From an uncultured virus (IMG/VR IMGVR_UViG_3300021387_000016) (Duplodnaviria > Heunggongvirae > Uroviricota > Caudoviricetes), in the IMG/VR virus record IMGVR_UViG_3300021387_000016: a stretch of DNA of 64,000 nt. The stretch is one strand, 5' to 3'. Below are positions 1-63,889 of this stretch, piece by piece. The notes below the pieces were generated by a model, which had not been told where the DNA came from, ran no database searches, and saw only the letters and a program-made list of their open reading frames with translations. Within the stretch, counting starts at the first letter, position 1. Each line of letters begins with the position of its first letter. A program made the translations under genes and the position numbers.

Positions 1-194
1 TTCTGTCTATACACTCCACCATCTGAAGTACCAATGCACTTAGCTAAAATAGTTGCACCACTTGAAATTGTAAACTCAATATATCCAGTGCTAGCCCATA
101 TCAAATACATCTTGTTTGGAGTATACCCACTAGAGCTTGTATAGTATGCGCTAGAGTTCCATGTTGGTGTAAAAGCATGGAAGCTAGAGGTGGT
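1..194 (-). other. Silent variable cassette A (truncated by window edge)
   Basis: Open frame TTSSFHAFTPTWNSSAYYT... begins at the Thr codon of site GTT193; no start codon or RBS. Confidence 0.7.
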
Positions 195-197
195 TCG

Positions 198-482
198 TTA
201 AAATGTTTCGCTACGATAATACAACTTTCCTGTATATACAACCGCAACGTTTGTCGCTCGATATCCTTTATTTACTACAACAATTCCAGTTGAAGGTGTA
301 TATGATATTGTCACATTTCCTAATGTCACGCTACCATCGGGAGTATGTCCTTGAACAGACGTTACAATGATAAAAAAGTTGTCGCTAGTTAAACTAGAAT
401 AATTTGTTAATTGACTACGTATATCAAATGTATCTTGCTGATAAGCAGTACGTAAATCCGCTAAATACTTGACTTCCAGTGT
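198..482 (-). other. Silent variable cassette B (absent from ORF track)
   Basis: Manual translation TLEVKYLADLRTAYQQDTFDIRSQLTNYSSLTSDNFFIIVT...YYRSETF*; its TAA lies inside the next site; paralogous to cassette F. Confidence 0.8.
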
Positions 483-519
483 TCGTTGAAATCATACGAG
501 CCAAAAGTTGTTGTTAATT

Positions 520-822
520 TTAGTTAAATGTAAATAATCCATAACCCGCAGTATTATGTCTATTAGTATTACAACGTATAGTTACAGAAGTCGCTTCACT
601 AGGAACAGATATATTTCCTGTAATTGTTGGCTTTGTATTTCCTACAGTTCCAGTTGTTCCATTACTAAAAGAATAAGTAATAGTTGGAGTGACATCTGAG
701 TGACCAGTGAATGAATATGCAATTGTGGATAATCCATTTACAGGAAACGTATACGTATAATACGCTGGATACGTATTCCCAGCATGGTAGTTGGTAAATG
801 AAAAAGTTACACCAGACAATGT
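520..822 (-). other. Silent variable cassette C
   Basis: ORF 520..819 extends in frame to site GTT821; T/S/Y/G-rich beta-type sequence. Confidence 0.8.
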
Positions 823-840
823 TCGTTGAAATTATACCGA

Positions 841-1134
841 TTATTTCAAAGCATAAACTACTGATACTCCTTGATATACATTACCTAGCTGATATGGAGT
901 TGATGTAACTGTAATATCTGTCCAAGCGGGTGATATCGTGTAGTTTCTAAATACTCTGTACTTTCCTGTTCTTAACGCAAATGTATTACATTCGGTTGAT
1001 ATGTTTGAGAATTGGAAATACGTAGTAGAAAATGAATAATGATTACTAATTGATATTTCGTTCATGCTTGAATCATAAACAGTAGCTCCTTGATTCACAC
1101 AATAGACCAATACTTCATTCCATTCAATTCCCGT
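841..1134 (-). other. Silent variable cassette D
   Basis: Frame TGIEWNEV... opens at site GTT1133. Confidence 0.8.
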
Positions 1135-1155
1135 TCCTTGGAAAAACACGCAATT

Positions 1156-1464
1156 TTAGTTAATCAAAGATACTGGCCCAGTGCCTACTACAAATATACA
1201 TCCACCACTCATAGAACCAGAGTAAGCTCCTGTGACTTGTATCACTCCTGAACTTATGAATGAAGGAGATACACGCGCATCTGTAATACCGTCAGTATAG
1301 ATTTTGGTAAGAGTGTTTGTGCTAGATTTAAAGCTCCACATACCATTACCATAGTAAGCACCTAACATCAGATATCCGTCAGGTGCTTGAGACACATTAA
1401 ACTGTCGATTGTAAACTACAGTAGTGGCTTCTATCATAGGAGAATAGGCTACGCTTGGGGTTGT
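1156..1464 (-). other. Silent variable cassette E
   Basis: Frame TTPSVAYSPMIEATT... opens at site GTT1463. Confidence 0.8.
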
Positions 1465-1479
1465 TCGCTAAAATACTAC

Positions 1480-1755
1480 TTACGTTGTTGGTAACGGTTC
1501 AGGAGTGTAATAAACTCTGCAATTACAATACAGATAATATTCTCCGCCCCATCCCGCGCTACATGTTAATGTCCCTGTAGAGGAATCATATGTCCAAGTG
1601 GGAGTTGGATCACCATAAGAAATATTATGTGCAGCTATAGATGTAACTATGCAAAAGAAATTATCATGTGTCGCACTTCTGTAAGCAGAAACTTTAGACT
1701 TTACATCAAAAGAACTACTTAGCGAAAACGTTCCGATAAAGATATTTTGTGAAGT
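1480..1755 (-). other. Silent variable cassette F (absent from ORF track)
   Basis: Manual translation TSQNIFIGTFSLSSSFDVKSKVSAYRSATHDNFFCIVT...EPLPTT*; an in-frame TGA sits immediately upstream, so full-length expression needs fusion. Confidence 0.8.
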
Positions 1756-1775
1756 TCATTTGAATAATACCTTAA

Positions 1776-2105
1776 TTATTCAATCCACAACTGTGACCAA
1801 TAGCCACCACCATAGTTATAGTAAGAAAAAGAATCCGAATCAGTTTTTATAGTTCCTGTGAACACATATAATCGAGTTATGCTAGAAGGAGCATATACAT
1901 AATTAGTGTGCCCATTATTGTAACTACAATCATAGTAAGTTCCGGTTAGCACTGTTCCGTTTTGAGAATATGTGAGAGTATAACCCTCCACAGTATACGC
2001 AGTAATAACAAACTTCTTGCCTTTGTATCCGTTGATTAACATTTCTGGAAATGATGAACTAGAAGTACTTGGATAAATATAGTAAGCTGTGGAATATTGC
2101 GCAGT
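1776..2105 (-). other. Silent variable cassette G
   Basis: Frame TAQYSTAYYIYP...EMLINGY opens at site GTT2104. Confidence 0.8.
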
Positions 2106-2108
2106 TCG

Positions 2109-2468
2109 TCAATATGCTACAATTTCTGCACTATTGAAAAAAGCAGTTCCCAATGCACCACTAAACGTACCAACATAACCAAAAGATTGCCCAATATTAT
2201 AATTGTTATCTACAGAGTATTGTGTGGTAGCATTATCAAAATGTCCAACTATATGACAATTTTTTAATGCAGTAACAGTAAGATTATTGCCAGTTCCATA
2301 CTTCCATGTTGAATCCCATGTTAGCTTAAAGAAATTATTGACATTAACTTCAAAACTTGTAGCCCCTAAATTATTAGTATGCGTTAACAACGATTTTCCA
2401 CTAAACGAAGATGGAGTATATATTGTATCTCCATAATACAAGCCATAAAAATAGGCTTGAAGTCCCGT
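2109..2468 (-). other. Silent variable cassette H
   Basis: Frame TGLQAYFYGLYYGD... opens at site GTT2467. Confidence 0.75.
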
Positions 2469-2490
2469 TGGTATAAATCACACGTAAATT

Positions 2491-2820
2491 TTACTTGAAT
2501 ACAATAGCAACGTCACCACCGACAGTATTCCAAGTCGCTGATTGATAATTAGTAACTTCTATTTGATACAGCGAACATTTTGAGTTATACCCACCTGGAT
2601 AATTTGCATTTGCATTCTTACTATTTACTGTACTTAAATGAGTTGCAGTAGCATTCGTGAGTCCGTTTATTGCAATAGGGTTAGTATCTGTATTTGTTGC
2701 ATTGTATGTCTCAATTAGCATGTACCATGTTCCATTAGACTTAAATGGCAAATCTTGATTTGCATTATAGTGCGGTTTGTACATTGCAGCATTTGTTATC
2801 GAGTACAGATTTGAGGGAGT
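2491..2820 (-). other. Silent variable cassette I
   Basis: Frame TPSNLYSITNAAMYKP... opens at site GTT2819. Confidence 0.8.
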
Positions 2821-2827
2821 TCCTTAA

Positions 2828-3145
2828 TTAAATACCATATATTTGTTTAGGGACAGCTGCATTAGAACCTCCTACTCCGTTAGGCAAAACACCATTAGTG
2901 AAAGTCACTCCGCTATTATCAACAGTTACGTTCCTACCGTATGCACAATAGTTTACAAGTGAGCAACACATTGCAACAAAAGAGTTTGATGTGCCTTTGT
3001 CTACATATGCAACATTTGAAACGCTTTGTAACGTGATATCGTATCCAACAATTATTACTCCACTATAAGATGTCAAGTCTAGTGATACTTTCTGAGCTGC
3101 AAATTCTGCACTAAGATTAGGGTTTGTCCAGAGCAGAGTCTTTGT
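2828..3145 (-). other. Silent variable cassette J, tail-fibre C-terminal-like
   Basis: TKTLLWTNPNLSAEFAAQKVSLDLTSY...PKQIYGI*; the LLWTNP...FAAQ.V.LDL and terminal IYG motifs are typical of Bacillota phage tail-fibre tips. Confidence 0.8.
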
Positions 3146-3165
3146 TCGAACAAAAAGGAATGATT

Positions 3166-3315
3166 ATGAGATTGAAACTTTTTATAATTGCCCTAATTTT
3201 TTTATGCATAGGATTATTTATAAAAAATCAGCTAGTAACAAGTGAGCAGTTATGCTATGTAGTAGGATCTATATTTGTTCTTCTAGCCATAGCATTAGAT
3301 GATAGAAAGAAATAA
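3166..3315 (+). CDS. Small two-TM membrane protein
   Basis: Two hydrophobic stretches and a basic tail (DDRKK). Confidence 0.5.
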   Translation: MRLKLFIIALIFLCIGLFIKNQLVTSEQLCYVVGSIFVLLAIALDDRKK

Positions 3316-3457
3316 CCGCGTAAAAGGAATGTTTGACGTGGTTTTCTTATGCAATTTTCTAATTATCTAAATTCTGTTTATAAAACTTCTAATTCTTATA
3401 ATCCCATTGTTTTATATAAACACCTCTAAAGAAAACTGATATAATCCTTAGTCGGAG

Positions 3458-4312
3458 GTGATTTATTTGGATAATGAAAAAATGATAGTAGGCTATGCCA
3501 GAGTATCTACACCCAAGCAGAGTCTACGCAGGCAGATAGACAACTTAAAGTCTGCCTACCCAAACATTGTTGTGGTGTCTGAGGTATTTACCGGAAGCAC
3601 CGACAATAGACCGAAATGGAAAAAGCTAATGAGGCAATGCCGCGCTGGTAACATTAGCAAGTTGGTTTTTGATGAAGTTTCCAGGTTCAGTAGAAATGCG
3701 GAGGAAGCTATTGTCGAGTATAAGGAATTGTATTCGTTAGGGATTGAGTTGGAGTTCCTGAAAGAGCCACACATCAATTCTAAGATATACAGAGATGCTT
3801 CTGAGCGAAAAATCGAGATTGCCACAGGCTCTATGGATCACGAGACTGCACAACTTATTACAACGGTTATAGGTGGTTTGAACGATTACTTATTGTCTGT
3901 TGCGGAAAAGCAGATATTCTTAGCATTTGAACATGCGCAAAAGGAAAGGGAACTATTATCCAAGAGAACATCAGAAGGATTGAAACAAGCTAAGTTAATG
4001 GGTAGCAAGGTAGGAAGACAACCAGGGCAAAAGTTAGTTACCAAAAAGTCTAAGAGAGCAAAACGTATAATTCGGAATCACTATGAACTATTCGGTGGAG
4101 AGTTGACCGCGACACAGTGTTTCACCCTTGCGCAAATAACGAAATCGACTTTTTATAGGTATCTGAATGAGATGAGAGAAGAAGACAAGGCCAGGGGAAT
4201 AATATGGGATGATGAAATCCTGGCAGAAAAGATAGACAAGAAAGAAACTGATCCAGACGAAATAGTTAAGACCATTATTGCTAACAAAAAAACGCGAAAG
4301 CCTATTAACTAA
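3458..4312 (+). CDS. Serine recombinase, resolvase/invertase family
   Basis: GYARVST catalytic motif, RP.W..L, DEVSRFSRN, ERELLSKRTSEGL, GR.PG and a C-terminal HTH (ITKSTFYRY). Confidence 0.95.
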   Translation: MIYLDNEKMIVGYARVSTPKQSLRRQIDNLKSAYPNIVVVSEVFTGSTDNRPKWKKLMRQCRAGNISKLVFDEVSRFSRNAEEAIVEYKELYSLGIELEFLKEPHINSKIYRDASERKIEIATGSMDHETAQLITTVIGGLNDYLLSVAEKQIFLAFEHAQKERELLSKRTSEGLKQAKLMGSKVGRQPGQKLVTKKSKRAKRIIRNHYELFGGELTATQCFTLAQITKSTFYRYLNEMREEDKARGIIWDDEILAEKIDKKETDPDEIVKTIIANKKTRKPIN

Positions 4313-4447
4313 GCAATCACGCTGATTGATAAGCATATACTTATCTTTGACAAAGAAAAAGTATATGATAAAGGCAAAAATTAAACAAGAACAAAATGAC
4401 TTAATTTTATTCATTATCTGATATAATGGATTAAAGGCGGTTACAAT

Positions 4448-4690
4448 GTGGGTTACAAGAAACATCAGCTTAAGGATGTCACAAGATCACAACTAAATCA
4501 CATCATTGATGAATATATCATAGGTTTCAAGGCAGAACGCAATCGGAGCATTATGCGTGAAAGGCTATGTGAAGGTCATACATATGAAGAACTGGCTGAG
4601 ATGTATGATATGTCTGTCAATCAGATTAAGAATATTGTATACAGGGAATTAGAAGTATTAAGCAGACATTTAGAGGTAGAAATCAACTGA
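4448..4690 (+). CDS. Sigma-70 region-4-like HTH protein
   Basis: EGHTYEELAEMYDMSVNQIKNIV. Confidence 0.75.
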   Translation: MGYKKHQLKDVTRSQLNHIIDEYIIGFKAERNRSIMRERLCEGHTYEELAEMYDMSVNQIKNIVYRELEVLSRHLEVEIN

Positions 4691-4708
4691 TTTCTACCTC
4701 TATTTTTT
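4672..4708 (+). terminator. Intrinsic terminator
   Basis: AGAGGTAGAAATCA-AC-TGATTTCTACCTCT followed by a T-run. Confidence 0.7.
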
Positions 4709-4781
4709 GGCCTAAAATTGTACTTTTCTTTGATTTTTCAATAAGTACTTTTATCTGAAAATGTATATAGAGGATAAAAGT

Positions 4782-5174
4782 ATGTCTTTTTGTTATTACC
4801 AACCAAACCCCCTACATAAGAATGGAAAAGGTGATTGCACTGTTCGCAGTGTATCAAAGGCATTAGGCATATCTTGGGATTCTGCTTACATTGATTTAGT
4901 TATGCAGGGTTATCTTTTAAAAGATATGCCTTCCTCGAATGAAGTTATGTCCTCATATCTAAGATCTAAAGGTTTTAGGCGATATGCGGTTAGCAACACT
5001 TGTCCTGATTGTTATAGCTTTGAAGATTTCGCACAAGACCATCCACAAGGAACGTTCATAGTCGGAACTGGGACTCATGTAGCTTGTATCGATTCAGGTT
5101 GCATTTACGATAGCTGGGATAGTTCCGACTGTGTGGTTATCTACTATTACGAAAAGGAGTATGAGCCATGGTAA
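4782..5174 (+). CDS. Hypothetical protein with Cys-His-Asp motif (papain-like fold suspected)
   Basis: GDCTVR...GTHVACID..IYDSWD. Confidence 0.55.
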   Translation: MSFCYYQPNPLHKNGKGDCTVRSVSKALGISWDSAYIDLVMQGYLLKDMPSSNEVMSSYLRSKGFRRYAVSNTCPDCYSFEDFAQDHPQGTFIVGTGTHVACIDSGCIYDSWDSSDCVVIYYYEKEYEPW

Positions 5175-5620
5175 ATCCAACTTATTCACCCAATTATCAG
5201 TATTGTTATCCAGGAAATCAAATGCAATATCAAGCACCTGTCATACAGCAGCCTATTCTTTCTCAACCAGTTCAACAGACTGTTCCTAATCAGATTCTTG
5301 CATGGGTTCAGAGTGAAGAAGAGGGTGTTAAATATCCACTCAATGCAGGGCAAAGCATTTTTCTTATGAATCAGCATGACCCATATCTTTATATGAAATC
5401 TGTGGATCAGCTTGGAAAAACAACATTTATCAAAAAGCGTCTTGTTGATGAAACAGAAAATCAGGAACAAAAAGTAGATCTTACTGATTATATCCGCAAA
5501 GAAGAAATTGAAAATATCATTTTGGATATTGTCCAAAAAGAAGTTGAAAAACGTGTTTCTCAGATTTCTTTTAAGCCAACAAGAAAGAAAACAGTAGTTG
5601 TTGATGAAGACGAGGACTAA
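5168..5620 (+). CDS. Conserved hypothetical protein, Q/P/Y-rich N-terminus
   Basis: ORF with RBS (AAGGAG), overlapping the upstream stop. Confidence 0.75.
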   Translation: MVNPTYSPNYQYCYPGNQMQYQAPVIQQPILSQPVQQTVPNQILAWVQSEEEGVKYPLNAGQSIFLMNQHDPYLYMKSVDQLGKTTFIKKRLVDETENQEQKVDLTDYIRKEEIENIILDIVQKEVEKRVSQISFKPTRKKTVVVDEDED

Positions 5621-5623
5621 TCT

Positions 5624-5938
5624 ATGAATCCATTTTTTAGACCAGGTATGCAAGGAATGCTCCCACCACCAGCTCAAAACATAATGAATATCATGCGTCA
5701 GGTTCAGCAAATCAAACAGCATCCAAATCAGCTTGCAGATTTATTAAAGCGAAGAGGAATGATTGATGATAACCAGGTTAAAGATATTCAAAAAATGGGA
5801 AATAACTATGAACAAATAGGACATTATCTTATGAATAATGGGAAAATGCCAACTAACATTCAGCAATACGAAAGTCAAGTTAATCAAGTCCAAAACATGA
5901 TGAATCCCCCTCAGAATGTTCAAACCGGACAGAATTAA
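5624..5938 (+). CDS. Q/N/M-rich hypothetical protein
   Basis: ORF in the same operon. Confidence 0.75.
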   Translation: MNPFFRPGMQGMLPPPAQNIMNIMRQVQQIKQHPNQLADLLKRRGMIDDNQVKDIQKMGNNYEQIGHYLMNNGKMPTNIQQYESQVNQVQNMMNPPQNVQTGQN

Positions 5939-6109
5939 TTAGACATAGAAAAAGAGCGTATCAGTATGCTTGGTGGCCTGATACGCTCCCTTACGAAACA
6001 AGTTTACACTTATTCCCTAACCAAGATAAGTATAAGCCTTTCGTAAGGATTTAACAATGGTTTCATTTTGCGCAAATGAAAATACAACCTTATGAAAGGA
6101 GAAATTCTT

Positions 6110-7036
6110 ATGAATGACGAGAACATGGTAATGCCTGTACAGCCTTTGTATGGCGGCGCTGGTTATGGCGGTGGTATGGGTGGATTCGGCTACGGCGGTG
6201 ATTGGTGGCTGATTCTTATTCTTTTATTCGCTTGTGGCGGATGGGGAAATGGATTTGGCGGCGGTTTTGGCGGCTATGGAAACATGATGCTCGGTTATGA
6301 TTTCCCTTGGCTTCTTAACGGTCAGCAAGGCATCAATAACAACGTCTCAGACGGATTCAGAGATGCACAGATTAGCAACAACGTTACTTCTATTCGTGAT
6401 GGCATTGCAGCTCTTTCTACTCAGATTTGCGGTGCTACTGGTGACATTCAGAACAGCCTTTGCAGTGGATTTAACGGTGTTACTACAGCCGTTAACACAG
6501 CTCAGAATGCTCTTGCACAGCAGCTTTACACAAATCAGATTGCAGATCTTGAGAGAAGTTACGCTGCTCAGACTGCTTCCACACAGGGAATGAGCAATAT
6601 TCAGAGTCAGCTTGCGCAGTGCTGCTGCGACAACAGATTGGCTACATGCCAGACTCAGAACATTGTTCAAAATGAAGGCAATGCTACAAGATTTGCTGAT
6701 GCAAACAATACAAGAGATATTATTGAAAATCAGAACAGGAATAGTCAGGCTATAATCGACAAGTTATGTGCTCTCGAATTAGATGGCGTTAAAAATCAGC
6801 TTGCGCAGGCTCAGAGAGAAAATGTTGGTTTACAAAATCAGCTCAATATGGCTACTTTAAGAGAGTCACAGACAGCACAGAACGCATTCATCTCACAGGG
6901 CTTTGCAAATGAAGTAGATCAGCTTTACAACAGACTTTCTAACTGTCCTGTTCCTTCAACTCCTGTATATGGAAGAACCCCTATATTCACATGCCCACAG
7001 AATCAGACTATGGGATGTGGATGCGGTAACTTCTGA
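6110..7036 (+). CDS. Gly-rich TM plus long coiled-coil protein with CCC motif
   Basis: GGDWWLILILLF hydrophobic segment, QLAQCCCD, C-terminal GCGCG; RBS AAGGAG before ATG6110. Confidence 0.8.
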   Translation: MNDENMVMPVQPLYGGAGYGGGMGGFGYGGDWWLILILLFACGGWGNGFGGGFGGYGNMMLGYDFPWLLNGQQGINNNVSDGFRDAQISNNVTSIRDGIAALSTQICGATGDIQNSLCSGFNGVTTAVNTAQNALAQQLYTNQIADLERSYAAQTASTQGMSNIQSQLAQCCCDNRLATCQTQNIVQNEGNATRFADANNTRDIIENQNRNSQAIIDKLCALELDGVKNQLAQAQRENVGLQNQLNMATLRESQTAQNAFISQGFANEVDQLYNRLSNCPVPSTPVYGRTPIFTCPQNQTMGCGCGNF

Positions 7037-7050
7037 TAGGAGGTGTTACT

Positions 7051-7500
7051 ATGGCAGAGTATATCGAAGTTGCGCCTCAGAATGTGGCCCTAAACAATCC
7101 GATTATATTCAATGCGTCCATTCCTTGTCCTAAAGGCTATGTCTATCACGAGGATGGCACAGCGAATTTTGTTCTGCGCGGTGTAACAAACAATTGCTTT
7201 GCACGTTATCAACTCGATTTTGGAGCAAACGTAGCCATTCCAGAAGGAGGGGCTGTTTCTCCAATAGCTGTAGCAATCTCTGTAAACGGAGAAATAAGAC
7301 CTAGTAGCCTTGCTATTACCACACCTGCCGCAGCTGAAGAGTTCCAGAATCTTAACGCAAGCGCAATAGTTACTGTTCCTAAAGGATGCTGCTTTAACAT
7401 TGCTGTGAAGTATGTCAGCGGTGTTACGGACGGAACAACTACACCAACCCCTACTATCGATGTTCAAAACGCAAATCTGGTTATTACCAGAATCGCGTAA
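7051..7500 (+). CDS. Beta-sandwich protein, BclA-C-terminal-like (tentative)
   Basis: Q.VA.N.PI.F...Y.L.F..NV...NANLVITRIA pattern; RBS AGGAGG. Confidence 0.55.
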   Translation: MAEYIEVAPQNVALNNPIIFNASIPCPKGYVYHEDGTANFVLRGVTNNCFARYQLDFGANVAIPEGGAVSPIAVAISVNGEIRPSSLAITTPAAAEEFQNLNASAIVTVPKGCCFNIAVKYVSGVTDGTTTPTPTIDVQNANLVITRIA

Positions 7501-7512
7501 AGGAGGCATGTT

Positions 7513-7989
7513 ATGAAGGTATATGACCAAATCAAAGACATGCTGTGCGATGAGCTGGAAGAAATTGCAAAAAAGAAAGAGCTGACTTCGAATAGCCTTG
7601 AAGTTCTTTATAAGGGTGTTGATATCCTTAAAGACATTAGTACTATCAAAGCTATGGAACAGGAATATCCTGATGAGGGTTATTCAGGCGAGAATGGTTA
7701 TTCCAGAGATGGCTATTCCAGAGGATACTTTGGAAGAATGCCTTATTATATGTATGATGACGCTCCAATGGGAATGTCTCAGGAAGGCGGCTCATATGCT
7801 CGCGGAAGAGGTTCAAACGCAAGACGTGATTCTATGGGTAGGTATTCAAGTGATGGAAGATCATATGATTACTCCAGGGATGGTTACTCAGGAGATACCA
7901 AGGAAGAGTTGCAGCGTCTTATGAACAACGCTCAGAATGACAGAGAAAGAGAAGCTATTAGAAAAGCTCTTGACAGCATGAACAGATAA
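7513..7989 (+). CDS. Hypothetical protein with GYSR repeats and RRDSMGRY motif
   Basis: ORF with AGGAGG RBS; low-complexity G/Y/S/R core. Confidence 0.8.
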   Translation: MKVYDQIKDMLCDELEEIAKKKELTSNSLEVLYKGVDILKDISTIKAMEQEYPDEGYSGENGYSRDGYSRGYFGRMPYYMYDDAPMGMSQEGGSYARGRGSNARRDSMGRYSSDGRSYDYSRDGYSGDTKEELQRLMNNAQNDREREAIRKALDSMNR

Positions 7990-7991
7990 AC

Positions 7992-8029
7992 AAAAGGGCC
8001 TGATTCCTATATGGGAGTCAGGCTTTTTT
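7992..8029 (+). terminator. Intrinsic, probably bidirectional terminator
   Basis: AAAAGGGCCTGATTCC-TATAT-GGGAGTCAGGCTTTTTT. Confidence 0.8.
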
Positions 8030-8395
8030 ATTGATGTTATCCAAACTATATCAAATTATTTTGTACAATGTTCTGTGTATCAATATTTTGGATACAGTGA
8101 TAGAATTAAACACAAGGTCGATGATAGGTATTGCAAGCCGACAAGGAGTAAATCGCTGACTCTTTCATCGACTTTAAATCAGCGAGTAACGAAAGCGAGG
8201 TTACAATCTTGGAAAAAAGTCTTTTAGAAATCCCTGATGAAAAATAACTCTTACGGATGAAAACCCATTAAACCTTTGCCATAACCATATAGAGAGGTAG
8301 AAGAATGAATGAACTACCACCACCGATGATATCGGAAATGGTTTCTCGCTGAATTTTATAATGACGTTGATGTGCGGAGATTAAGGAGAATGGAA

Positions 8396-9707
8396 ATGAA
8401 TTTAATAGATGTAAATAATATTGATTGTACTAAATTACCAAAGAAACTTTATCCTTATATGAAAGATATTTTAGATTTTTTCGATGTACAACCAACAATT
8501 GATGCAATCCCCAAAGACCAATATGAAAACCGCTTAAAGGCTGATTTAGAGGCTATTCTTGTTGAGTTACAGTTGGAGATTAAAGAAATACAATCTCTTG
8601 AAGGTGAATGTGACTATGCTATTGACGAATGTATTTATAAGTACAAAGTAACAGATTTAATCCAAGAAAAAATTAATGAGTTAAAGGGAAAAAGTTAGAA
8701 TAATGGGAAAATAAAAGGCCTTGGTATATGCCAAAAGATAAAGAACTGGAAGTCATAGAATGAGGTGCACATGGGGAAGAAACAAGATAAAGAATTAGAA
8801 CAATTAGATATTCTTACAACCTACGACATGCTCGATGATGATGATATATCAACAGAGAGACTATTCGCTTTGGTATGTGATGAGTGTCACTGTGATGTGG
8901 ATGATGTTATTAACGCATTAATGCAAGCGGGGAGACTTAAAGAAAAATGATTGAATGGAATCCTAAAATAACAATAGTGGGCAAACTAATAAATGTGCTA
9001 TACGGACTTGATGGCTGTGAAGAAGGGGGATTATTACATTTTGTTATTGAGGATGGAAATATTAAAGATGATGATATTGAGTATGCTTTACATAATTGTG
9101 TAAATAATCCTGATGAAATTGATTCTGAGTTAGGTATTATCATTTGTTGTTATCTTTCTCAGCTGACTCTAGAGCAACGTGCTTTATTATTGAGCTTGTC
9201 AAGTTCATACATAACCAAAGAGCTTTGGGAAAGTTTACAAGATAATCCTAGAGTTCAAGCCAAATTTAAAAGCTATTTAGGAACATCAATTGGAGAGTGA
9301 TGAAAATGGTGGGAATGAATAATGAAAAAATGAAACAAGAAGCTATTTCAAGAATGCAACGTTTGGAACTAGACGAGTTTGTTATTGAAGATTTCAAAAA
9401 TGGAAAACTATCTCTGTCAGATCATAATAGAATTACTGATGTTCCAGAGGACATACTTAAACAAATTAAAGAATGGGAAAATAAATTCCACAACCTTGTA
9501 TATCATGTGGTACATGGTAATTTTATGTGTGAAACTTATGAATGCTTATCTGTATCAAATTATAAGGAAGACTGGGATTATGAGAATTCAATCATGGATG
9601 ATAACTGGGTCATGTCACACAGTATCAATATTAGTATTCCGGCATATACTGAATCCGGTTCAGTAAAAGTCAAAAATAATAATGGCATTTTGCAACGTAT
9701 AAATTAA
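8396..9707 (+). CDS. Four small hypothetical genes (8396-8698, 8771-8950, 8947-9300, 9297-9707)
   Basis: ORF track; overlapping stop/start codons. Confidence 0.6.
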
Positions 9708-9968: not shown

Positions 9969-11132
9969 TTAGTTATCTAAAAATAGTTTTTCATCAATAT
10001 CCTCTGTATTTTGCTGGAATTTAAAAAATGAAGAACTATGCTTTTTTGATTTTGGTGGTTGGTAGTTATTTTCTATCGCTTTAAGTAACCAGGCAACAAC
10101 GTTTTTTATTTCAGATTCAGAATCATTCATAAGATCTATAGCATCAGTGACCTTTTTCACATCATAATTAGCCTTTTCAGCAAGTACACGAGCATCTGCA
10201 ATACTAAATTCACTTCCTAATAACATCTTGATAGAAAAAATTGATTCCATCTTTTCATCATCAGTTATCTTTTTCTCCACATCTTCATTATTTGTTATCT
10301 TTTTCTCCACATCTTTATAGTGAATGGTAAATGTAATTGCTACTATCTTACCGCCTTTTCCTGCCCTATTAGGTTTATAATTTAGGTTCATTTCAGTCTT
10401 TTCGGTAATTTCTTTTGTAGCTACTTCTAACACATATTTTTTCAGATCACGCCAATCATCATATCGTTTTTCTGAGGCTATTTCTACAGCTTTGTCGTAA
10501 TCAGGTTTTTCTTTTCCGTCCAGAATTGCTCTTATCTTCTTTTCGGAAGCATCTATTACACCTAATTCTAGTTTTAGTTCTGACAATCCTATTACAAATT
10601 CAAAACCACCATCCATTGTTTGCTGACAATTCCGGTTTCCAATAAATGTCTCAGATTCTAGTAATTCATATAATCTGAATGAGTATACCGATTTAAAATC
10701 CATCATTACAGGAAGTGACAAAAGCGTAAATTTATTCTGTAACTGGTATACCTTGGACTTAACCTTTTTATTGAATGTTATTGTAAAAACTCCCTTAACA
10801 TAATCAGCGTCAGTAACAATTGACATATAATGGAATTCTTTTTTCTCATCATCTTCTATTCCGATGGATCTGCCAACAAGAGCTTTGGCCGTAGGCCGTA
10901 AATGTGAATATATACTATTGCCTTTATTGAATATTTTCTTTAATTCTGCTCCGGCCATTGATACAGTAATATCATCGTTTTTGTCATCTAACACAGTATT
11001 CTGCAACTTGTATAAGGCAGCTGCAAAAAGTTTATTTTCATATATAGTGGATTTATATTTAGCACCAATGATAATATTAGATTTTTGATAGACCATCCCC
11101 TGAGAATTATTCTGGGATTTTCGGTTAGACAC
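9969..11132 (-). CDS. repB: Plasmid replication initiator, Rep_3/RepB family
   Basis: QKSN.II.AKY, FKSVYSFRLYELL, L.ELK..LG, DLKKYVLEVA.KEI, GGKIVAITF. Confidence 0.9.
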   Translation of the reverse strand: MSNRKSQNNSQGMVYQKSNIIIGAKYKSTIYENKLFAAALYKLQNTVLDDKNDDITVSMAGAELKKIFNKGNSIYSHLRPTAKALVGRSIGIEDDEKKEFHYMSIVTDADYVKGVFTITFNKKVKSKVYQLQNKFTLLSLPVMMDFKSVYSFRLYELLESETFIGNRNCQQTMDGGFEFVIGLSELKLELGVIDASEKKIRAILDGKEKPDYDKAVEIASEKRYDDWRDLKKYVLEVATKEITEKTEMNLNYKPNRAGKGGKIVAITFTIHYKDVEKKITNNEDVEKKITDDEKMESIFSIKMLLGSEFSIADARVLAEKANYDVKKVTDAIDLMNDSESEIKNVVAWLLKAIENNYQPPKSKKHSSSFFKFQQNTEDIDEKLFLDN

Positions 11133-13132: not shown

Positions 13133-13501
13133 TTAATTACCTCTCTTTATATCTTCTTCAATCAGCCAATTGATATATGCATTCATACCTCCAAATCTAC
13201 CGCCGACCTTTCTGGCATGTTCATAGTTTTCCATTTTTAATCTGGCAGAAATTGGTTTATACACGCCCTGGAGAATTTTAGGTCTCCCAACATTGGACTT
13301 ATCAATAACAGTAATTAAATCACTAGAAATATCAGAGGTCTTAAATTCACTTTTTGGAGGTTCAGGAAGAATTTCAGTACTCTTCTCTTCCTCTTTTTCA
13401 TAATTTTCTACCAGCTCGTCTACAATGGTTGTAACATTCTCTTTTGGACTTGGTGTAGAAGTCTGATTAAGCATTTTTAATTTATCTCTTTTGCTTGCCA
13501 T
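13133..13501 (-). CDS. Putative centromere-binding adaptor (RHH, type Ib partition)
   Basis: Coupled to the parA stop; C-terminal GRPK..ISARL...MNAYINWLIEED. Confidence 0.65.
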   Translation of the reverse strand: MASKRDKLKMLNQTSTPSPKENVTTIVDELVENYEKEEEKSTEILPEPPKSEFKTSDISSDLITVIDKSNVGRPKILQGVYKPISARLKMENYEHARKVGGRFGGMNAYINWLIEEDIKRGN

Positions 13502-14271
13502 TATTTTGCACCTCCTATAGCTGATAATAATTTTTTCGCAGCCAAGTTATAGTCTGTAGCCAGATTGCTATTTGAATCATAATCGAGAATTGCCTGTTTA
13601 AAACACTTACACTCACTGGCCGCAATTCCTTTTCTGATAGTTACTACTAAAGGATGATCTTCATACTCTTCGCTTTTTTCATCCAGCTTTTCTTTTGCAT
13701 TTTGGTGCATGATTGTATTTTCATATCTATTAAGAATGAGCATTGAAATCTTTGCTTCGGTTATAGGGCGTTTACCCTGTCTATATTTGATGATGTCATT
13801 GTGCACTTCTTCAACACCATCAATAGAACCATCATCTGCTTCTGCCGGAATAACAATAAAATCTGATGCTACATAGGCCATTGTAAGAAGCGTAGATCTC
13901 GCAGGAGCATTGTCAATTAAAATAACATCATATTTTTCTTTGATTAGGTCAATAACATCTTCCAGAAGAAAAATATCATCATGCTCTACGAACTCTTTAT
14001 CTGATTTTGAAAGTTCTTTTGATGATGCAATAACATCTACTCTTCCACAAGTCTGAATTGCATCTGAAATTGGCTTTTCTGCCTGGAGAACATCATAGAT
14101 TGTTGGAACAGATTCATCAGCCCCAACGTATTTTGAAAGATTACCCTGTTGGTCAAGATCCATGATAAGAACTTTTTTCTTTTTGCTTGCTATTGCATTG
14201 GCCAACTCAATTGTAGCTGTAGTTTTTCCTACACCACCCTTTTGATTAATTACACCTATTACTTTTCCCAT
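13501..14271 (-). CDS. parA: ParA/Soj partition ATPase
   Basis: NQKGGVGKTT deviant Walker A, DLDQQGN, YDVILID; real start is probably ATG14271 (AGGAG upstream). Confidence 0.95.
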   Translation of the reverse strand: MGKVIGVINQKGGVGKTTATIELANAIASKKKKVLIMDLDQQGNLSKYVGADESVPTIYDVLQAEKPISDAIQTCGRVDVIASSKELSKSDKEFVEHDDIFLLEDVIDLIKEKYDVILIDNAPARSTLLTMAYVASDFIVIPAEADDGSIDGVEEVHNDIIKYRQGKRPITEAKISMLILNRYENTIMHQNAKEKLDEKSEEYEDHPLVVTIRKGIAASECKCFKQAILDYDSNSNLATDYNLAAKKLLSAIGGAK

Positions 14272-14279
14272 AAAAAATA

Positions 14280-14575
14280 CTCCTATTTTTAATATTGATA
14301 TTAAAAATATTTCTAAATACGATATGAATATTTCTAATATTGAAATTAAATATACCAATATTAAAAACAAAAGTCAATATAAGTATTTTTAATATAAATA
14401 TTTATAATAAATATACGCATATTATAAATACTAATATTTATAATATGCGTATATAAAATACAAATATAATTTATTATGATATTAAAGATATGAATACCAT
14501 AAATACTAGTATCTCAAACATTATAGATATTAGTATTTGTAATAAACATATTTTTAATATGAGTAATATTCATAT
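14280..14575. repeat. AT-rich region with AATATT/ATACTAATATT repeats, candidate parS/operator
   Basis: Very AT-rich degenerate repeats upstream of parA; similar motifs at 14820-14875. Confidence 0.45.
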
Positions 14576-17985: not shown

Positions 17986-18861
17986 GTGGAAAAGAATGAA
18001 GTTCAAGTGACTAAAAAACAGGGAATAAATGCTTTTTTACAAACCGAAGCAGTCAAATCAAATATTGCTTCTGTAATCGGGGAGAAGGATTGTCAGAGAT
18101 TTATTAGTTCTGTAGTTAGTGCTGTTCAGACAAATCCATCTCTTGCAGAATGTACCAATGCAAGCATTCTGTCAGCTGCATTATTGGGGCACAGTTTGAA
18201 GTTGCCTCAATCACCACAATTGCAGATGTTTTATCTTGTTCCATTTAATAACAAGAAAAAAATCACGGATGAAAATGGACGAGAAACTGAAATTAAAATC
18301 AAGGAAGCGGTATTTCAGCTTTCATACCGAGGATATTTGCAGCTTGCAATGAGAAGTGGCCAATACCACAAAATCAATGCATGTGAGATCAGGGAGGGGG
18401 AACTTAAGTCCTATAACCCCATCACAGAAGAATATCTATTCGATGCAATAAAGGACTTTGAAAAAAGAAAAAATCTTCCTGTTGTGGGATATTATGCATA
18501 TTTTGAAATGACCAATGGGTACAAAAAAGAGATTTATTGGTCAAAAGAACAGATGGAAGAACATGCAAAAAGATATTCTGCTTCATATAGAACAGATCTT
18601 CAAAAAGGGTGGAAAACATCGTATTGGACATCTGATTTTGATTCAATGGCACTTAAGACAATGCTTCGCCAACTCATAAGCAAGTGGGGCATGATGAGTG
18701 TTGAACTTGAAAAAGCTTATCAGAATGACATGGCAGTTGAAGATGAAAATGGAAACCCACTATATCTTGATAATGTTCCAGATGAACCAGAGAAAGGAAC
18801 AGATGTAATGGCTGATGTTATTGAAAGTGTTGCAAAAGAGGTTAAAGAGGAAAAAGTATGA
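17986..18861 (+). CDS. recT: RecT-family ssDNA annealing protein
   Basis: L.EC...SIL, YLVPF, FQLSYRGYLQLAMRSG, MALKT.LRQL. Confidence 0.9.
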   Translation: MEKNEVQVTKKQGINAFLQTEAVKSNIASVIGEKDCQRFISSVVSAVQTNPSLAECTNASILSAALLGHSLKLPQSPQLQMFYLVPFNNKKKITDENGRETEIKIKEAVFQLSYRGYLQLAMRSGQYHKINACEIREGELKSYNPITEEYLFDAIKDFEKRKNLPVVGYYAYFEMTNGYKKEIYWSKEQMEEHAKRYSASYRTDLQKGWKTSYWTSDFDSMALKTMLRQLISKWGMMSVELEKAYQNDMAVEDENGNPLYLDNVPDEPEKGTDVMADVIESVAKEVKEEKV

Positions 18862-19703
18862 GTGATTTTATCTTGACAGAGGGAAATTACTACAGTCAAG
18901 AAGCAGATCAACTCTACTGTTCAGCTTCACAATGGAAGGACTTTATTGGCTGTCCAGCTATTCCAGGATGTGAAGCTAGAGCAATGGCTAAACTAAATGG
19001 AAAATATCAACAGGAAATAACAAATTCATTACTTATTGGCTCAATATTGGATGCGCTTTGGGAAAATGATGATCCTGAATACATAGCAGAACGGTTTCCA
19101 GATTGTGTAAGTTCAAGAGGCCCTACAAAAGGGCAACTAAAATCTGAATTTCAAATTGCTTTGCAAATGTATCAAAGAACATTAAAAGAACCAAAGTTTT
19201 GTCAATATATGAGCGGAGAAAAGCAGGTCATAATGACCGGAATCATTGAGGGATTACCCTTCAAAATTAAGATAGATTCATATATCGCAGGAAAAGCAAT
19301 AGTCGATTTGAAATCTACAAGAACACTTGATAGGGATTTTAGGATATTTATTCCTGATAGTGGTGAAAAGCTTCCATGGTATAAGGCATATGGTTATGAC
19401 ATCCAATTGGCTATATATCAGGAAATCGTGAGACAAAACACTGGTGAATCATTAAGATGCTTTTTGGCAGCGGTGGATAAAGAAAAACATCCGATTGGAG
19501 ATGTTATCGAACTTTTGCAGAAGATGTTGAATGAAGCACTGGATGAAGTTAAACGAGGATGCAAAAAAATTATTCTGCTTAAAAATGGAGAAATTGAACC
19601 CATTCGGTGCGATCACTCGTCGTGTGATTATTGTAGAGATACACATGAATGCCAGGTTATAAGTACCGATGAGTTTGAGACACATGAAATTCAAGGAGCA
19701 TGA
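18858..19703 (+). CDS. RecE-like PD-(D/E)XK exonuclease (DUF3799-like)
   Basis: KIKID...IVDLKST...YDIQLAIY; adjacent to recT. Confidence 0.85.
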   Translation: MSDFILTEGNYYSQEADQLYCSASQWKDFIGCPAIPGCEARAMAKLNGKYQQEITNSLLIGSILDALWENDDPEYIAERFPDCVSSRGPTKGQLKSEFQIALQMYQRTLKEPKFCQYMSGEKQVIMTGIIEGLPFKIKIDSYIAGKAIVDLKSTRTLDRDFRIFIPDSGEKLPWYKAYGYDIQLAIYQEIVRQNTGESLRCFLAAVDKEKHPIGDVIELLQKMLNEALDEVKRGCKKIILLKNGEIEPIRCDHSSCDYCRDTHECQVISTDEFETHEIQGA

Positions 19704-62125: not shown

Positions 62126-63889
62126 ATGAACGAGATATTAAAAGATAGTCAGGGAATCGCCAGATACCTTGAAAGACACAAAATTGACGAAAACGTAATT
62201 AGAGAAAGTATTAGTTTGGTTGATAGAGCTTTCTATACAGAAAAAGACACTCAACTTGGGAAAAGAATGGGTGCACTTGCCAAACAGTATGTCAGACAAA
62301 ACATCATGGATATGACTGGTGGACTGTCTTTTGAAAAATTAGAAGAATTAACCCAAAAAAACAAAGATAACTCTATAGCTCAGATACATTACTATTACGA
62401 CATATTACGACTTGAAGCACCTTTTATTTTGGACAGTTATAAGCTCTATATTGAAAAAGATCGTCCAAGAAAAGACCGATTTTACGAGCCACGCAGAAAA
62501 ACTCTGATTAAGGTAACGGAAGCTGTTCAAAGGCTTGAAGATAATGAGCTGGATATTTTATTTCTACATCAGCCTCCGCGAACAGGAAAAAGCGGAGATA
62601 TGACTATGGATACATCCTGGCATTGTTCAAGAGATCCAGAGTTATCAAATCTCTATGTGACATACAAAGAAGGCTTGGGTGGAGCTTTTTTAGATGGTGT
62701 TATCGAAACATTAACAGACCCAACGTATTGCCATAAAGACGTTTTTCCAGACGTAAAAATAAATGAAACTGACGCAAAAAACAACAAACTTGACCTAAGA
62801 AAAGAGGGTGGCCGAAAAACAAAGAAGTATAAAACCCTCTCCGGAAAAGGTCTGGAGTCTGGATTAAATGGTGAATACGATGCAAGCGGATGGCTTCTTA
62901 TAGATGACCCACTTGAAGGTGTTCAGGATGTAATGTCAGAGGAAGTCTTAAAAAGAAAACAGACTATTTTTGACAACAACGTTCTGTCAAGAAAAAAAGA
63001 AAATTGCAAGGTTATCTGCATAGGAACATTGTGGGCAACTAATGACCTTTTCATGAATTATCTTGATTTCATAGAAACAAGGCCTGAAATGAAGGATACT
63101 CGCTATGAAATTATCAAGATTCCAGCACTAGATCCTAATACTGACGAGAGTAATTTCGAATATGATTATGGAGTAGGCTTTTCCACCAAGTATTATCAGA
63201 GTTTAAGAGCAAAATTTGAGAATAACGATGATATGGTCGGATGGTTTTGTCAGTATCAGCAAACACCTATTGACCGTGTTGGAGCAGTATTTAATCCTCA
63301 ACACATGAGATATTACAGTACGCTCCCAGGAATAGAACCACTAAAGGTTATCTCTCATGTGGACGTTGCTCTAGGCGGCGCAGACTATTTGGCAATGCCT
63401 GTTGTATATTACTACGAAGATGAAGAAGATGGACTGGTTGGATATGTTGAGGATGTTGTTTTTGATAACTCCGAGAAGCATATAACAGAGCCACAGGTTA
63501 TAGCCATGGTCAAAAAGCATATCATTAAGCATCTACACTTTGAGGCAAACCAGGGTGGCGAAGGATATGCGGACGATATACGAAAAGCTCTGGCAGAGGA
63601 TAAAGAGTACAAAGAAGTCTGTAATATTTCATCTGATTGGGCATTAACCACCAAAAGAAAACAACAAAGGATTTTTGATAACGCAGAAAGCATACGAAAA
63701 CTTTATTTCAAAGACCCACAACATCGTAGTATTCAATACCAAAGATTTATGAATAATCTCTTTAGGTTTTCAACAAATATGAGAAAAAGAGAAAATGATG
63801 ATGCACCTGATGCTTTATCAGGACTTGTTGATTTTGAAAAGCATGGGACTGGAATTAAGACAGCAAGAATTATCCAAAGTCCAATCTAA
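62126..63889 (+). CDS. terL: Terminase large subunit
   Basis: QPPRTGKS Walker A, LLIDDP Walker B, GT.W, HVDVA, FEANQGG, DDAPD. Confidence 0.92.
   Translation: MNEILKDSQGIARYLERHKIDENVIRESISLVDRAFYTEKDTQLGKRMGALAKQYVRQNIMDMTGGLSFEKLEELTQKNKDNSIAQIHYYYDILRLEAPFILDSYKLYIEKDRPRKDRFYEPRRKTLIKVTEAVQRLEDNELDILFLHQPPRTGKSGDMTMDTSWHCSRDPELSNLYVTYKEGLGGAFLDGVIETLTDPTYCHKDVFPDVKINETDAKNNKLDLRKEGGRKTKKYKTLSGKGLESGLNGEYDASGWLLIDDPLEGVQDVMSEEVLKRKQTIFDNNVLSRKKENCKVICIGTLWATNDLFMNYLDFIETRPEMKDTRYEIIKIPALDPNTDESNFEYDYGVGFSTKYYQSLRAKFENNDDMVGWFCQYQQTPIDRVGAVFNPQHMRYYSTLPGIEPLKVISHVDVALGGADYLAMPVVYYYEDEEDGLVGYVEDVVFDNSEKHITEPQVIAMVKKHIIKHLHFEANQGGEGYADDIRKALAEDKEYKEVCNISSDWALTTKRKQQRIFDNAESIRKLYFKDPQHRSIQYQRFMNNLFRFSTNMRKRENDDAPDALSGLVDFEKHGTGIKTARIIQSPI

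Follow-up and report, generated by a model that had tools for sequence, protein, structure and literature searches.

An array of start-less tip cassettes beside a serine recombinase in an uncultured gut phage: anatomy of a probable multiple-inversion system

Inversion switches in which a serine invertase exchanges the ends of phage tail fibers are well known from Gin of phage Mu, Cin of phage P1, and the multi-site Min system of p15B. Enzymes of the Gin/Hin type are ∼190 amino acids (aa) long and consist of a catalytic domain and a short C-terminal helix-turn-helix. They act at 26-bp sites with two-sided symmetry, in which inverted half-sites surround a 2-bp core, and their invertasome needs an enhancer bound by Fis. 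Min has six crossover sites. Here we describe an array of coding cassettes in a stretch of 64,000 nucleotides from an uncultured member of the Caudoviricetes (IMG/VR record IMGVR_UViG_3300021387_000016). We refer to this whole stretch as the window. Positions 1–3163 of the window very probably serve as the silent store in a shufflon, or multiple-inversion system, whose expressed gene lies to the left. This is how an initial annotation, made from the letters of the window, had interpreted the region; the feature is confirmed, and the interpretation is supported by the analysis that we report below.

In Min, Gin, and Cin, as laid out in the section of PMC6109161 that deals with them, a serine recombinase sits beside start-less cassettes for the C-terminal parts of tail fibers. 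Judging from the same section (PMC6109161), what these systems have in common with our array is a constant 5′ part with an in-frame crossover site, and an inversion (presumed in our case) that selects the tip. P1-like elements and the element studied here also both carry plasmid-type partition and replication genes. The array differs from these systems in several respects. First, its enzyme, of 284 aa, is nearer to Sin/Bin3 and the resolvases than to Gin, and named phage invertases are at most 29% identical to it. Second, there are 15 cassettes, compared with the six crossover sites of Min. Third, the target is a 206-aa protein without a family match, whereas Min, Gin, and Cin act on tail fibers. 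Fourth, its sites are conserved on one side only, and fifth, sister phages have a constant part that is cut down to a leader of 10–11 aa.

Several other systems resemble the array in part. The R64 shufflon (Rci and its sfx sites) likewise has many sites, a constant N-terminal part with variable C-terminal parts, and sites that are conserved on one arm. Rci, however, belongs to the tyrosine recombinases and acts on PilV, the adhesin of a conjugative pilus, rather than on a phage protein. Mpi, the master invertase of Bacteroides, flips promoters at many dispersed loci; the enzyme in the window resembles Mpi in its C-terminal part, but it accompanies coding cassettes instead of promoters. In the Rin shufflon of Bifidobacterium prophages, as described in the portion of the report devoted to it, a tyrosine recombinase acts on five tips, each preceded by an 11-bp repeat (Mavrich et al. 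2018; PMC6109161). From that portion (PMC6109161), Rin is similar to the array in its short constant N-terminal part of the receptor-binding protein (168 aa, compared with 116 aa here), in its tips of ∼95–100 aa with low mutual identity, in the short asymmetric repeat before each tip, in the position of the recombinase at the far end, and in a second, directly oriented site just beyond the expressed gene. The array differs from Rin in its serine recombinase, its 19-nt motif, and its 15 tips. In BV01-like Phocaeicola phages, a tail-fiber shufflon with three cassettes and six variants occupies 1.7 kb, according to the passages of a preprint that treat it (PMC13596623). As far as those passages go, this system shares with ours the setting (a recombinase-flanked shufflon in a gut phage) and directional short motifs between nonhomologous cassettes (PMC13596623); the motif (TGGGAGAACT with extensions) and the host differ, and evidence of activity is at the level of reads there, whereas here it comes from contigs alone. 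Finally, a survey of programmed inversions reports, in the part that covers its targets, phage tail genes among those enriched, and viruses were not scanned (PMC9881135). In the literature that we searched, neither this system nor a shufflon in a rumen phage is described. Inversion switching of tail-fiber tips is already known, and so are a few multi-cassette versions in gut phages. New to the present case are the array's size, the clade of the enzyme, the one-sided site, the combination of a tiny scaffold with a very large tip repertoire, and a sister form in which the constant part is only a leader.

Within the window, positions 1–3163 are filled by ten minus-strand frames (stop to stop) that have no start codon and abut head to tail, just as had been annotated. 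Named A to J from left to right, they are 65 (cut by the window edge), 97, 103, 104, 103, 91, 110, 122, 110, and 111 aa long. Nine of the ten reach at least 90 aa, covering 2853 of the 3163 nt in a region with a G+C content of 36%, whereas the maximum in 500 mononucleotide shuffles was three frames of this length per strand. Every frame is headed by a plus-strand GTT (AAC in the cassette sense), at positions 193, 481, 821, 1133, 1463, 1754, 2104, 2467, 2819, and 3144 for A to J, respectively, and in 10 of 10 frames the AC of this AAC begins a threonine codon, which agrees with the invariant opening reported initially. The cassettes, all on the minus strand, are A at 3–194 (frame 3–197), B at 198–482 (frame 198–491), C at 520–822 (frame 520–831), D at 841–1134 (frame 841–1155), E at 1156–1464 (frame 1156–1467), F at 1480–1755 (frame 1480–1755), G at 1776–2105 (frame 1776–2108), H at 2109–2468 (frame 2109–2477), I at 2491–2820 (frame 2491–2823), and J at 2828–3145 (frame 2828–3163). 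B to I are open frames. A has its 3′ part cut by the window edge and is complete (94 aa) at positions 6456–6737 of an overlapping contig, L007, and J belongs to what we call the TLLWTNP family, with a predicted receptor-binding-tip fold (see below). None of the ten cassettes matched a Pfam family. B and F are paralogs (BLASTP, 34% identity over 76 aa, E 8e-11), and the only further pair below E 0.01 is H with V3 (3e-4), a cassette to the left of the window; the annotation of B and F as paralogs was accurate.

The expressed constant gene had been expected on the plus strand to the left of the window, and it is there. L007 is a metagenome contig that was found by searching with the recombinase. 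Its own recombinase is 100% identical, the 300 bases of it that were aligned are identical to those of the window, and it extends the window leftward by 6.5 kb (window position = L007 position − 6543). The constant gene lies on the plus strand at L007 4520–5140, which is 1.4–2.0 kb left of window base 1. It starts with ATG, is preceded by the ribosome-binding site (RBS) AAAGGAG, and encodes 206 aa. Codons 111–117 read FVPFGGT (encoded …TTCGTCCCATTTGGAGGAAC A…), so that the site is in frame, and it is oriented opposite to the 13 minus-strand sites; the part of the gene before the tip runs up to GGAGGAAC. The expressed protein is made of a 116-aa constant N-domain and a tip of ∼90 aa, joined at …FVPFGG/T… (the slash marks the join). 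Beyond the constant gene come a plus-strand cassette, V2 (headed …GACGAAC), the minus-strand cassettes V3–V5, and then the complete A. Overall, the array comprises 15 cassettes and 15 sites in ∼4.8 kb, five of the cassettes being outside the window; the initial count of ten was right for the window and too low for the array. One cassette is expressed, V2 is on the plus strand, and 13 (ten of them in the window) are on the minus strand. Fourteen of the 15 are intact open frames. The arrangement is that of a shufflon: sites occur in both orientations, one is in frame within the constant part, and each of the others heads a start-less 3′ part.

Two of the 15 sites are plus-oriented and 13 are minus-oriented. 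When they are aligned in the cassette sense, AAC is present in 15 of 15 and GAAC in 14 of 15, and the sense consensus is NGGTATNATTTNAACGAAC. Conservation spans positions −14 to +2, and all columns on the cassette side carry at most 0.52 bit. The two half-sites typical of Gin/Hin-type sites are thus not found here, as the information is confined to −14 to +2. A position weight matrix (PWM) of 19 nt was built from the 15 sites and used to scan both strands of the joined 70.5 kb. The top 13 matches are all true sites, with those of V5 and J ranked 15th and 17th, respectively (the best nonsite scored 13.8), and leave-one-out scores are at least 10.9 for 13 of the 15 sites. The 19-nt site is real, but it is conserved on one side only, and the conserved outer half-site had been recognized correctly from the window. 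The ten window sites, all on the minus strand, are at 193–211 (A; sense GCGAAACATTTTAACGAAC; PWM score 17.6), 481–499 (B; 24.3), 821–839 (C; 22.9), 1133–1151 (D; 20.3), 1463–1481 (E; 18.6), 1754–1772 (F; 18.3), 2104–2122 (G; 16.6), 2467–2485 (H; 16.8, with CAAC in place of GAAC), 2819–2837 (I; 15.1), and 3144–3162 (J; a weak match at 11.0), the last of which is the right boundary of the array. The end of the constant gene is repeated in degenerate form in the conserved half of the site, and the residues leading into silent cassettes are …FQRT, LFKRT, FFQGT, LFVRT, or FIPT. There are also in-frame stops in the outer halves: a TGA stands directly before the Thr of F, and B, H, and V1 each have their stop within the next site (those of F, B, and H are visible in the window, as had been noted). 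Such stops fit cassettes that cannot be translated in place.

A small plus-strand open reading frame (ORF) at 3160–3315, with two hydrophobic stretches (MIMRLKLFIIALIFLC…) and no family match, begins within the outer half-site of J, which places its likely RBS and start in overlap with the right-most site. A related locus, L001, has only ∼120 nt where the window has this ORF.

The gene for a serine recombinase of 284 aa, presumably the invertase, lies on the plus strand at 3458–4312. Residues 10–132 match Pfam Resolvase (E 7.8e-23), and the protein matches PHROG 125 “DNA invertase” (E 4.9e-36), which is a broad family. The gene is full length, and the catalytic motifs YARVST and SRFSRN are present and aligned with those of Sin and Tn3 resolvase. 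The enzyme thus has the catalytic domain of a serine recombinase, as annotated, but it is not a close relative of Gin, Cin, or Min, the systems named in the annotation. In addition to the difference in length, the best catalytic-domain alignments are to Sin/Bin3 (E 2.4e-8) and to the Tn3 and gamma-delta resolvases, and Gin (4m6f) is weaker (E 3.2e-4). In the C-terminal half, residues 156–243 (88 residues) match positions 115–200 of the 203 in the NCBIfam Mpi-family model (E 7.9e-12), at a score of 45 bits that is far under the cutoff of 272, and ∼45 extra residues separate the catalytic domain from the Mpi-like part. The best matches among GenBank phages are uncultured human-gut records (43–44% identity). 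Wherever a related locus extends far enough upstream to be judged, the recombinase adjoins cassettes. In one human-gut phage (MT835627.1, 7001–7678; our locus L034), a recombinase of the same long architecture, at 43% identity, has genes for replication and recombination as its neighbors, and no cassette array is nearby; it is thus for the clade at 64%–100% identity that the link to cassettes holds.

Rearrangements were sought in four public sequencing runs. Only assembled contigs were used, and such contigs drop rare variants. The clearest case comes from a sheep-gut run (X3), the contigs of which are ∼96% identical to the window. One contig with cassette F (1490–1757) continues for 26 letters that equal L007 4840–4865, the end of the constant part of the gene (reverse-complemented by eye). 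The join reads FVPFGG-TSQNIF, in frame and exactly at the site, so cassette F occupies the expression site in X3. A second contig passes from E at 1466, through 16 letters that resemble the outer half-site of F, into G, and in the same contig 2103 is joined directly to 3144 (the five letters GTTCG are shared), from where the contig runs into the recombinase gene. The junctions of E, the F half-site, and G would be expected from two successive inversions, in which the constant-gene site recombined with the site of E and then with that of F, and the junction of G with the boundary is what would remain after an expressed G had been exchanged with the right-most site. Further X3 contigs diverge exactly at 1133 (D) and 2469 (behind H). 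In another run (X2), contigs diverge at 2819 (I), 3143/3144, and 3148, and several different left neighbors meet the right boundary of the array.

Relatives that are more distant provide a complete inversion. L019 and L021 represent a sister clade, with a recombinase that is 73% identical. Positions 2136–2890 of L019 correspond to 1271–517 of L021 in inverted orientation (755 bp, 99.5% identity), with both ends at sites and collinear flanks. Cassettes occur on both strands in L001, L005, L019, and L021. Site-bounded alternative arrangements were found in relatives only (X3, and L019 vs. L021). The expectation that cassette order would be rearranged with breaks at AAC is thus borne out for relatives and not for the contigs of the run that is most like the source of the window.

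The structure predictions that had been suggested for the cassettes bear on what the switch would change. Cassette J was modeled alone with six relatives (predicted local distance difference test [pLDDT] 82.6, predicted template modeling score 0.77). Its best match is the phi812 baseplate chain 9euf_8, residues 514–637 (Z 8.6, root-mean-square deviation [rmsd] 2.7, 99 of 106 residues aligned). Next are the C terminus of phage K gp144 (5m9f_A, Z 8.2), the monocin side fiber (9j1l_2, Z 7.0), and the T7 gp17 tip (4a0t_A, Z 6.4); the row after these scores 5.8. Foldseek also returned 5m9f_A for this model (E 1e-3). All four of the best rows are distal receptor-binding domains, a result obtained for J only. 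The initial assignment of the cassettes to tail-fiber tips is thus upheld for J by fold, whereas the target is not a long fiber but a small, 206-aa protein encoded after the lysis genes. The order on the left of L007 is a tail-fiber-like gene, three small genes, two holin-like genes, an endolysin gene (glucosaminidase and PG_binding_1 domains), a gap, and the constant gene.

The expressed protein is predicted to form a trimer via residues 20–115 (median ipSAE 0.78, whereas the best of three controls reached 0.00; at least 28% of contacts agree between runs, with a partner pLDDT of 56 or more). When the mark was calibrated, 20 of 30 solved same-chain pairs attained it, as did 1 of 23 single chains, although this calibration used two copies and other alignments, and holds only roughly for the three-copy case. 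According to VIA-align, residues 25–75 resemble the N-terminal part of the tail fibers of phage 7-7-1 (Z 6.1, rmsd 1.6, 47 residues aligned), and also chitin-binding domains. HMMER searches with the 116-aa N-domain retrieved 1292 representatives at E ≤ 1e-3, 121 at 1e-10, and 17 at 1e-30. The core of this domain (residues ∼20–80) recurs, often repeated, in larger proteins; among 12 of these that were checked, BppU_N (baseplate upper protein) directly precedes the shared module in three and CBM_5_12 in four. On the whole, these results lead us to infer that the expressed protein is a small, probably trimeric tail protein for receptor binding, in which an exchangeable head is mounted on a constant base. 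Receptor binding is most likely the task of the tips, in which case the switch would change the host surface recognized by the virion, and with it, presumably, the host range.

Several points weigh against this reading, and they concern the phage population, the array, the protein, and the enzyme. In run X1, which contains all sampled words of the window and is possibly its source, one contig spans 135–4788, and no alternative joint is listed among the X1 contigs. Strand-changing joints are not listed in the assembled contigs of any of the four runs. Because contigs drop rare variants, switching within one population is not seen in these data. In the array, cassette V2 (L007 5130–5457, ∼1.1–1.4 kb left of the window) has an apparent frameshift, its frame changing midway (5130–5381 and 5233–5457), and the sites of V5 and J fit the motif poorly (leave-one-out scores of 4.0 and 2.8, respectively).

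These points have to be set against two alternatives. In the first, the array is a static library, the cassettes of which are swapped between coinfecting phages by homologous recombination at the linkers, while the recombinase does other work, such as dimer resolution of a plasmid-like prophage. X1, without an alternative junction, is what favors this, together with the ParA-like protein and replication initiator encoded by the phage (a resolvase would have a job) and the human-gut homolog that is located away from cassettes. We consider it very improbable. Homologous exchange would be inefficient at a linker of only 19 nt, four bases of which are invariant; unrelated cassettes break at the same four bases, and the difference between L019 and L021 is the inversion of a segment that is otherwise nearly identical. 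Moreover, all related loci open to examination have the recombinase beside cassettes, and the orientation logic, with one constant site facing 13 opposite ones, suits an inversion switch. In the second alternative, the system is decaying or locked, so that sites and cassettes are relics and the array no longer switches. The single arrangement in X1, the frameshifted V2, the weak sites of J and V5, and an IS200/IS605-type element inside the related L006 array would all be consistent with decay; against it, 14 of the 15 cassettes are intact, the recombinase is neither truncated nor lacking its catalytic motifs, and relatives of ∼96% identity are arranged differently. A locked array is thus also improbable, and an array that can switch by inversion remains the reading that we prefer. 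Incidentally, a run of seven T (L007 5285–5291) sits in the overlap of the two V2 frames. An error in sequencing, a dead cassette, or a slippery tract could each account for the frame change in V2.

As for the protein, the expressed 206-aa sequence has no Pfam, PHROG, or NCBIfam family match and no match in GenBank phages. Given this, and given the position of the gene after the lysis genes, it is only by inference that the protein is placed in the virion. The full-length model has a pLDDT of 75, and its fold matches are weak overall; the best Foldseek rows from the Protein Data Bank are chains of the baseplate receptor-binding complex of phage Milano (E 0.016), and those from BFVD are uncharacterized siphovirus proteins (6e-6) and a “baseplate component” (4.5e-4). 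It is therefore conceivable that the shufflon is real and that its variable protein serves in decoration, in association with lysis, or in anti-defense rather than in receptor binding. The lack of a family, the weak full-length matches, and the location of the gene beyond the holin and endolysin genes, across a hairpin-rich gap of ∼580 nt, can be cited for such a role. We think it rather unlikely, as the four best fold matches of J are distal receptor-binding domains of phage or tailocin fibers, the core of the N-domain is common to BppU_N-bearing proteins of the baseplate type, a trimer is predicted, and in L001, L005, and L003 the gene directly follows tail-fiber genes. A receptor-binding role for the tips is the interpretation that we retain. 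The gap itself (L007 3935–4519) contains four terminator-like hairpins, compared with 0.8 expected from shuffles, and one of them (4467–4491, with a T-run) ends ∼15 nt before the RBS of the constant gene. An Rfam scan of the gap found nothing near a gathering score.

The enzyme is distant from characterized invertases, and a preference for inversion cannot be derived from likeness to them. In addition, 13 directly repeated sites would be deletion-prone under a resolvase-like enzyme. In the mechanism that we propose, the recombinase would be the switching enzyme and would have a strong preference for inversion over deletion. It would pair the site of the constant gene with any oppositely oriented site, and strand exchange would take place within or next to GAAC, probably with a 2-bp stagger at AA or AC inside the shared bases (of the candidate crossover dinucleotides, all 15 sites contain AA and AC, and 14 contain GA). 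The intervening DNA would then invert, and a new tip would be placed in frame with the constant part. Inversions between other pairs of sites would reorder the store. With regard to the avoidance of deletion among the 13 direct repeats, the one-sided sites recall, by analogy, sfx of R64; its asymmetry is reported to inhibit recombination between direct sites (Gyohda et al. 2002, 2006).

A broader idea, which we offer tentatively and with some doubt, is that this clade of recombinases is a mechanistically separate kind of serine invertase, in which one-sided 19-nt sites allow at least 15 sites to be managed without deletion and without Fis or an enhancer, probably in a Gram-positive host and on a modular scaffold. 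If it is true, the locus would be both a compact natural tool for multiplex inversion and the largest known library of plug-in receptor-binding domains. If inversion specificity is intrinsic to the enzyme, it would be of use in multiplex DNA shuffling.

The size of the tip repertoire can be judged from homologs of the expressed protein. A collection of 5.8 billion proteins yielded 102, most of which match only the first ∼57% of the protein, at 70%–95% identity. The motif F[VIL]PF is present in 94 of the 102, and F[VIL]PFGG[TS] in 85 (56 with T and 29 with S). In these 85, the tails that follow the FVPFGG point have lengths of 40–135 aa (median 99), and BLAST sorts them into 69 groups. When 84 of the homologs are aligned, conservation extends through residue 116, and there is no consensus beyond it. 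Public data thus hold at least 69 unrelated tip families on one 116-aa base. Among these tails, relatives were found for J (P0007, 40% identity over 108 aa) and A (P0003, 39% over 49 aa) only, and P0007 shows that tips of the J type do occur fused to the constant domain. When the cassettes were searched with tblastn against the other 32 loci (E 1e-5), relatives were again found for J only, which suggests that most tips are private to this phage. In terms of scale, 15 tips are packed into 4.8 kb, and a very small base (a trimer, by prediction) takes dozens of unrelated tips across animal-gut metagenomes. The base-plus-tip system could serve as a ready-made set for studying or retargeting receptor recognition by phages of uncultured gut bacteria.

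Other arrays are smaller, with approximately eight or nine sites in L022 (a cut contig), five or six cassettes in L031, and two to four cassettes each in L001, L003, L005, L006, L019, L021, and L029. In sister phages with recombinases that are 73%–81% identical, the constant part is a leader of 10–11 residues behind its own RBS, for example MAFYRCGTSGG/T, MAFFDCQSGG/T, or MPFVREQSGG/T. Such leader-only constant parts are found at L001 8292–8345, L005 8775–8830, L003 2580–2640, L019 ∼1849, and L021 ∼211. Inversion in these sisters would switch an entire stand-alone protein of ∼100–135 aa rather than the tip of a larger one. The scaffold is modular enough for the constant part to shrink to a leader of this size (L001, L003, and L005), and tips of the J type are present in both the leader-only and the N-domain formats.

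Two further features were seen in related loci. In L006, an IS200/IS605-type pair lies inside the shufflon at 7399–8986, between the constant gene and the silent cassettes; from reading of the translations, it comprises a putative TnpB-like ORF of 394 aa and a putative TnpA-like ORF of 153 aa. L006 (5918–6508) and L029 (1389–1805) also have a second gene, directly upstream, that consists of the constant N-domain alone and ends in …FVPF or …FTAF, and the proteins P0059, P0075, and P0089 are likewise N-domain alone. This N-domain-only form may be a tip-less partner or a remnant.

Searches for the wider distribution of the system were largely negative. Against 185,579 species genomes, the recombinase had one weak match, in a metagenome-assembled genome of Blautia (38% over 40 residues), the alignment of the constant domain had no match, and no prophage relatives were found. 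Megablast of window positions 1–6000 found nothing in GenBank phages, a 60-nt exact pattern from the recombinase gene had no match in viral contigs, and the nearest virus record (G001) is without this region. Small shares of words from the window occur in sheep, goat, and bovine gut runs, which is a weak hint of habitat only. The host is probably Gram-positive.

The array belongs to an animal-gut phage of roughly 95 kb. Elsewhere in the window are genes for a replication-initiator-like protein (9969–11132, minus strand), a ParA-like partition protein (13501–14370, minus strand; PHROG 164, E 7.5e-46), a RecT/exonuclease pair (17986–19703, plus strand), and the large terminase (62126–63889, plus strand). 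No integrase was seen among the 35 ORFs scanned in the window, and the lifestyle may be that of a phage-plasmid, like P1 and p15B.

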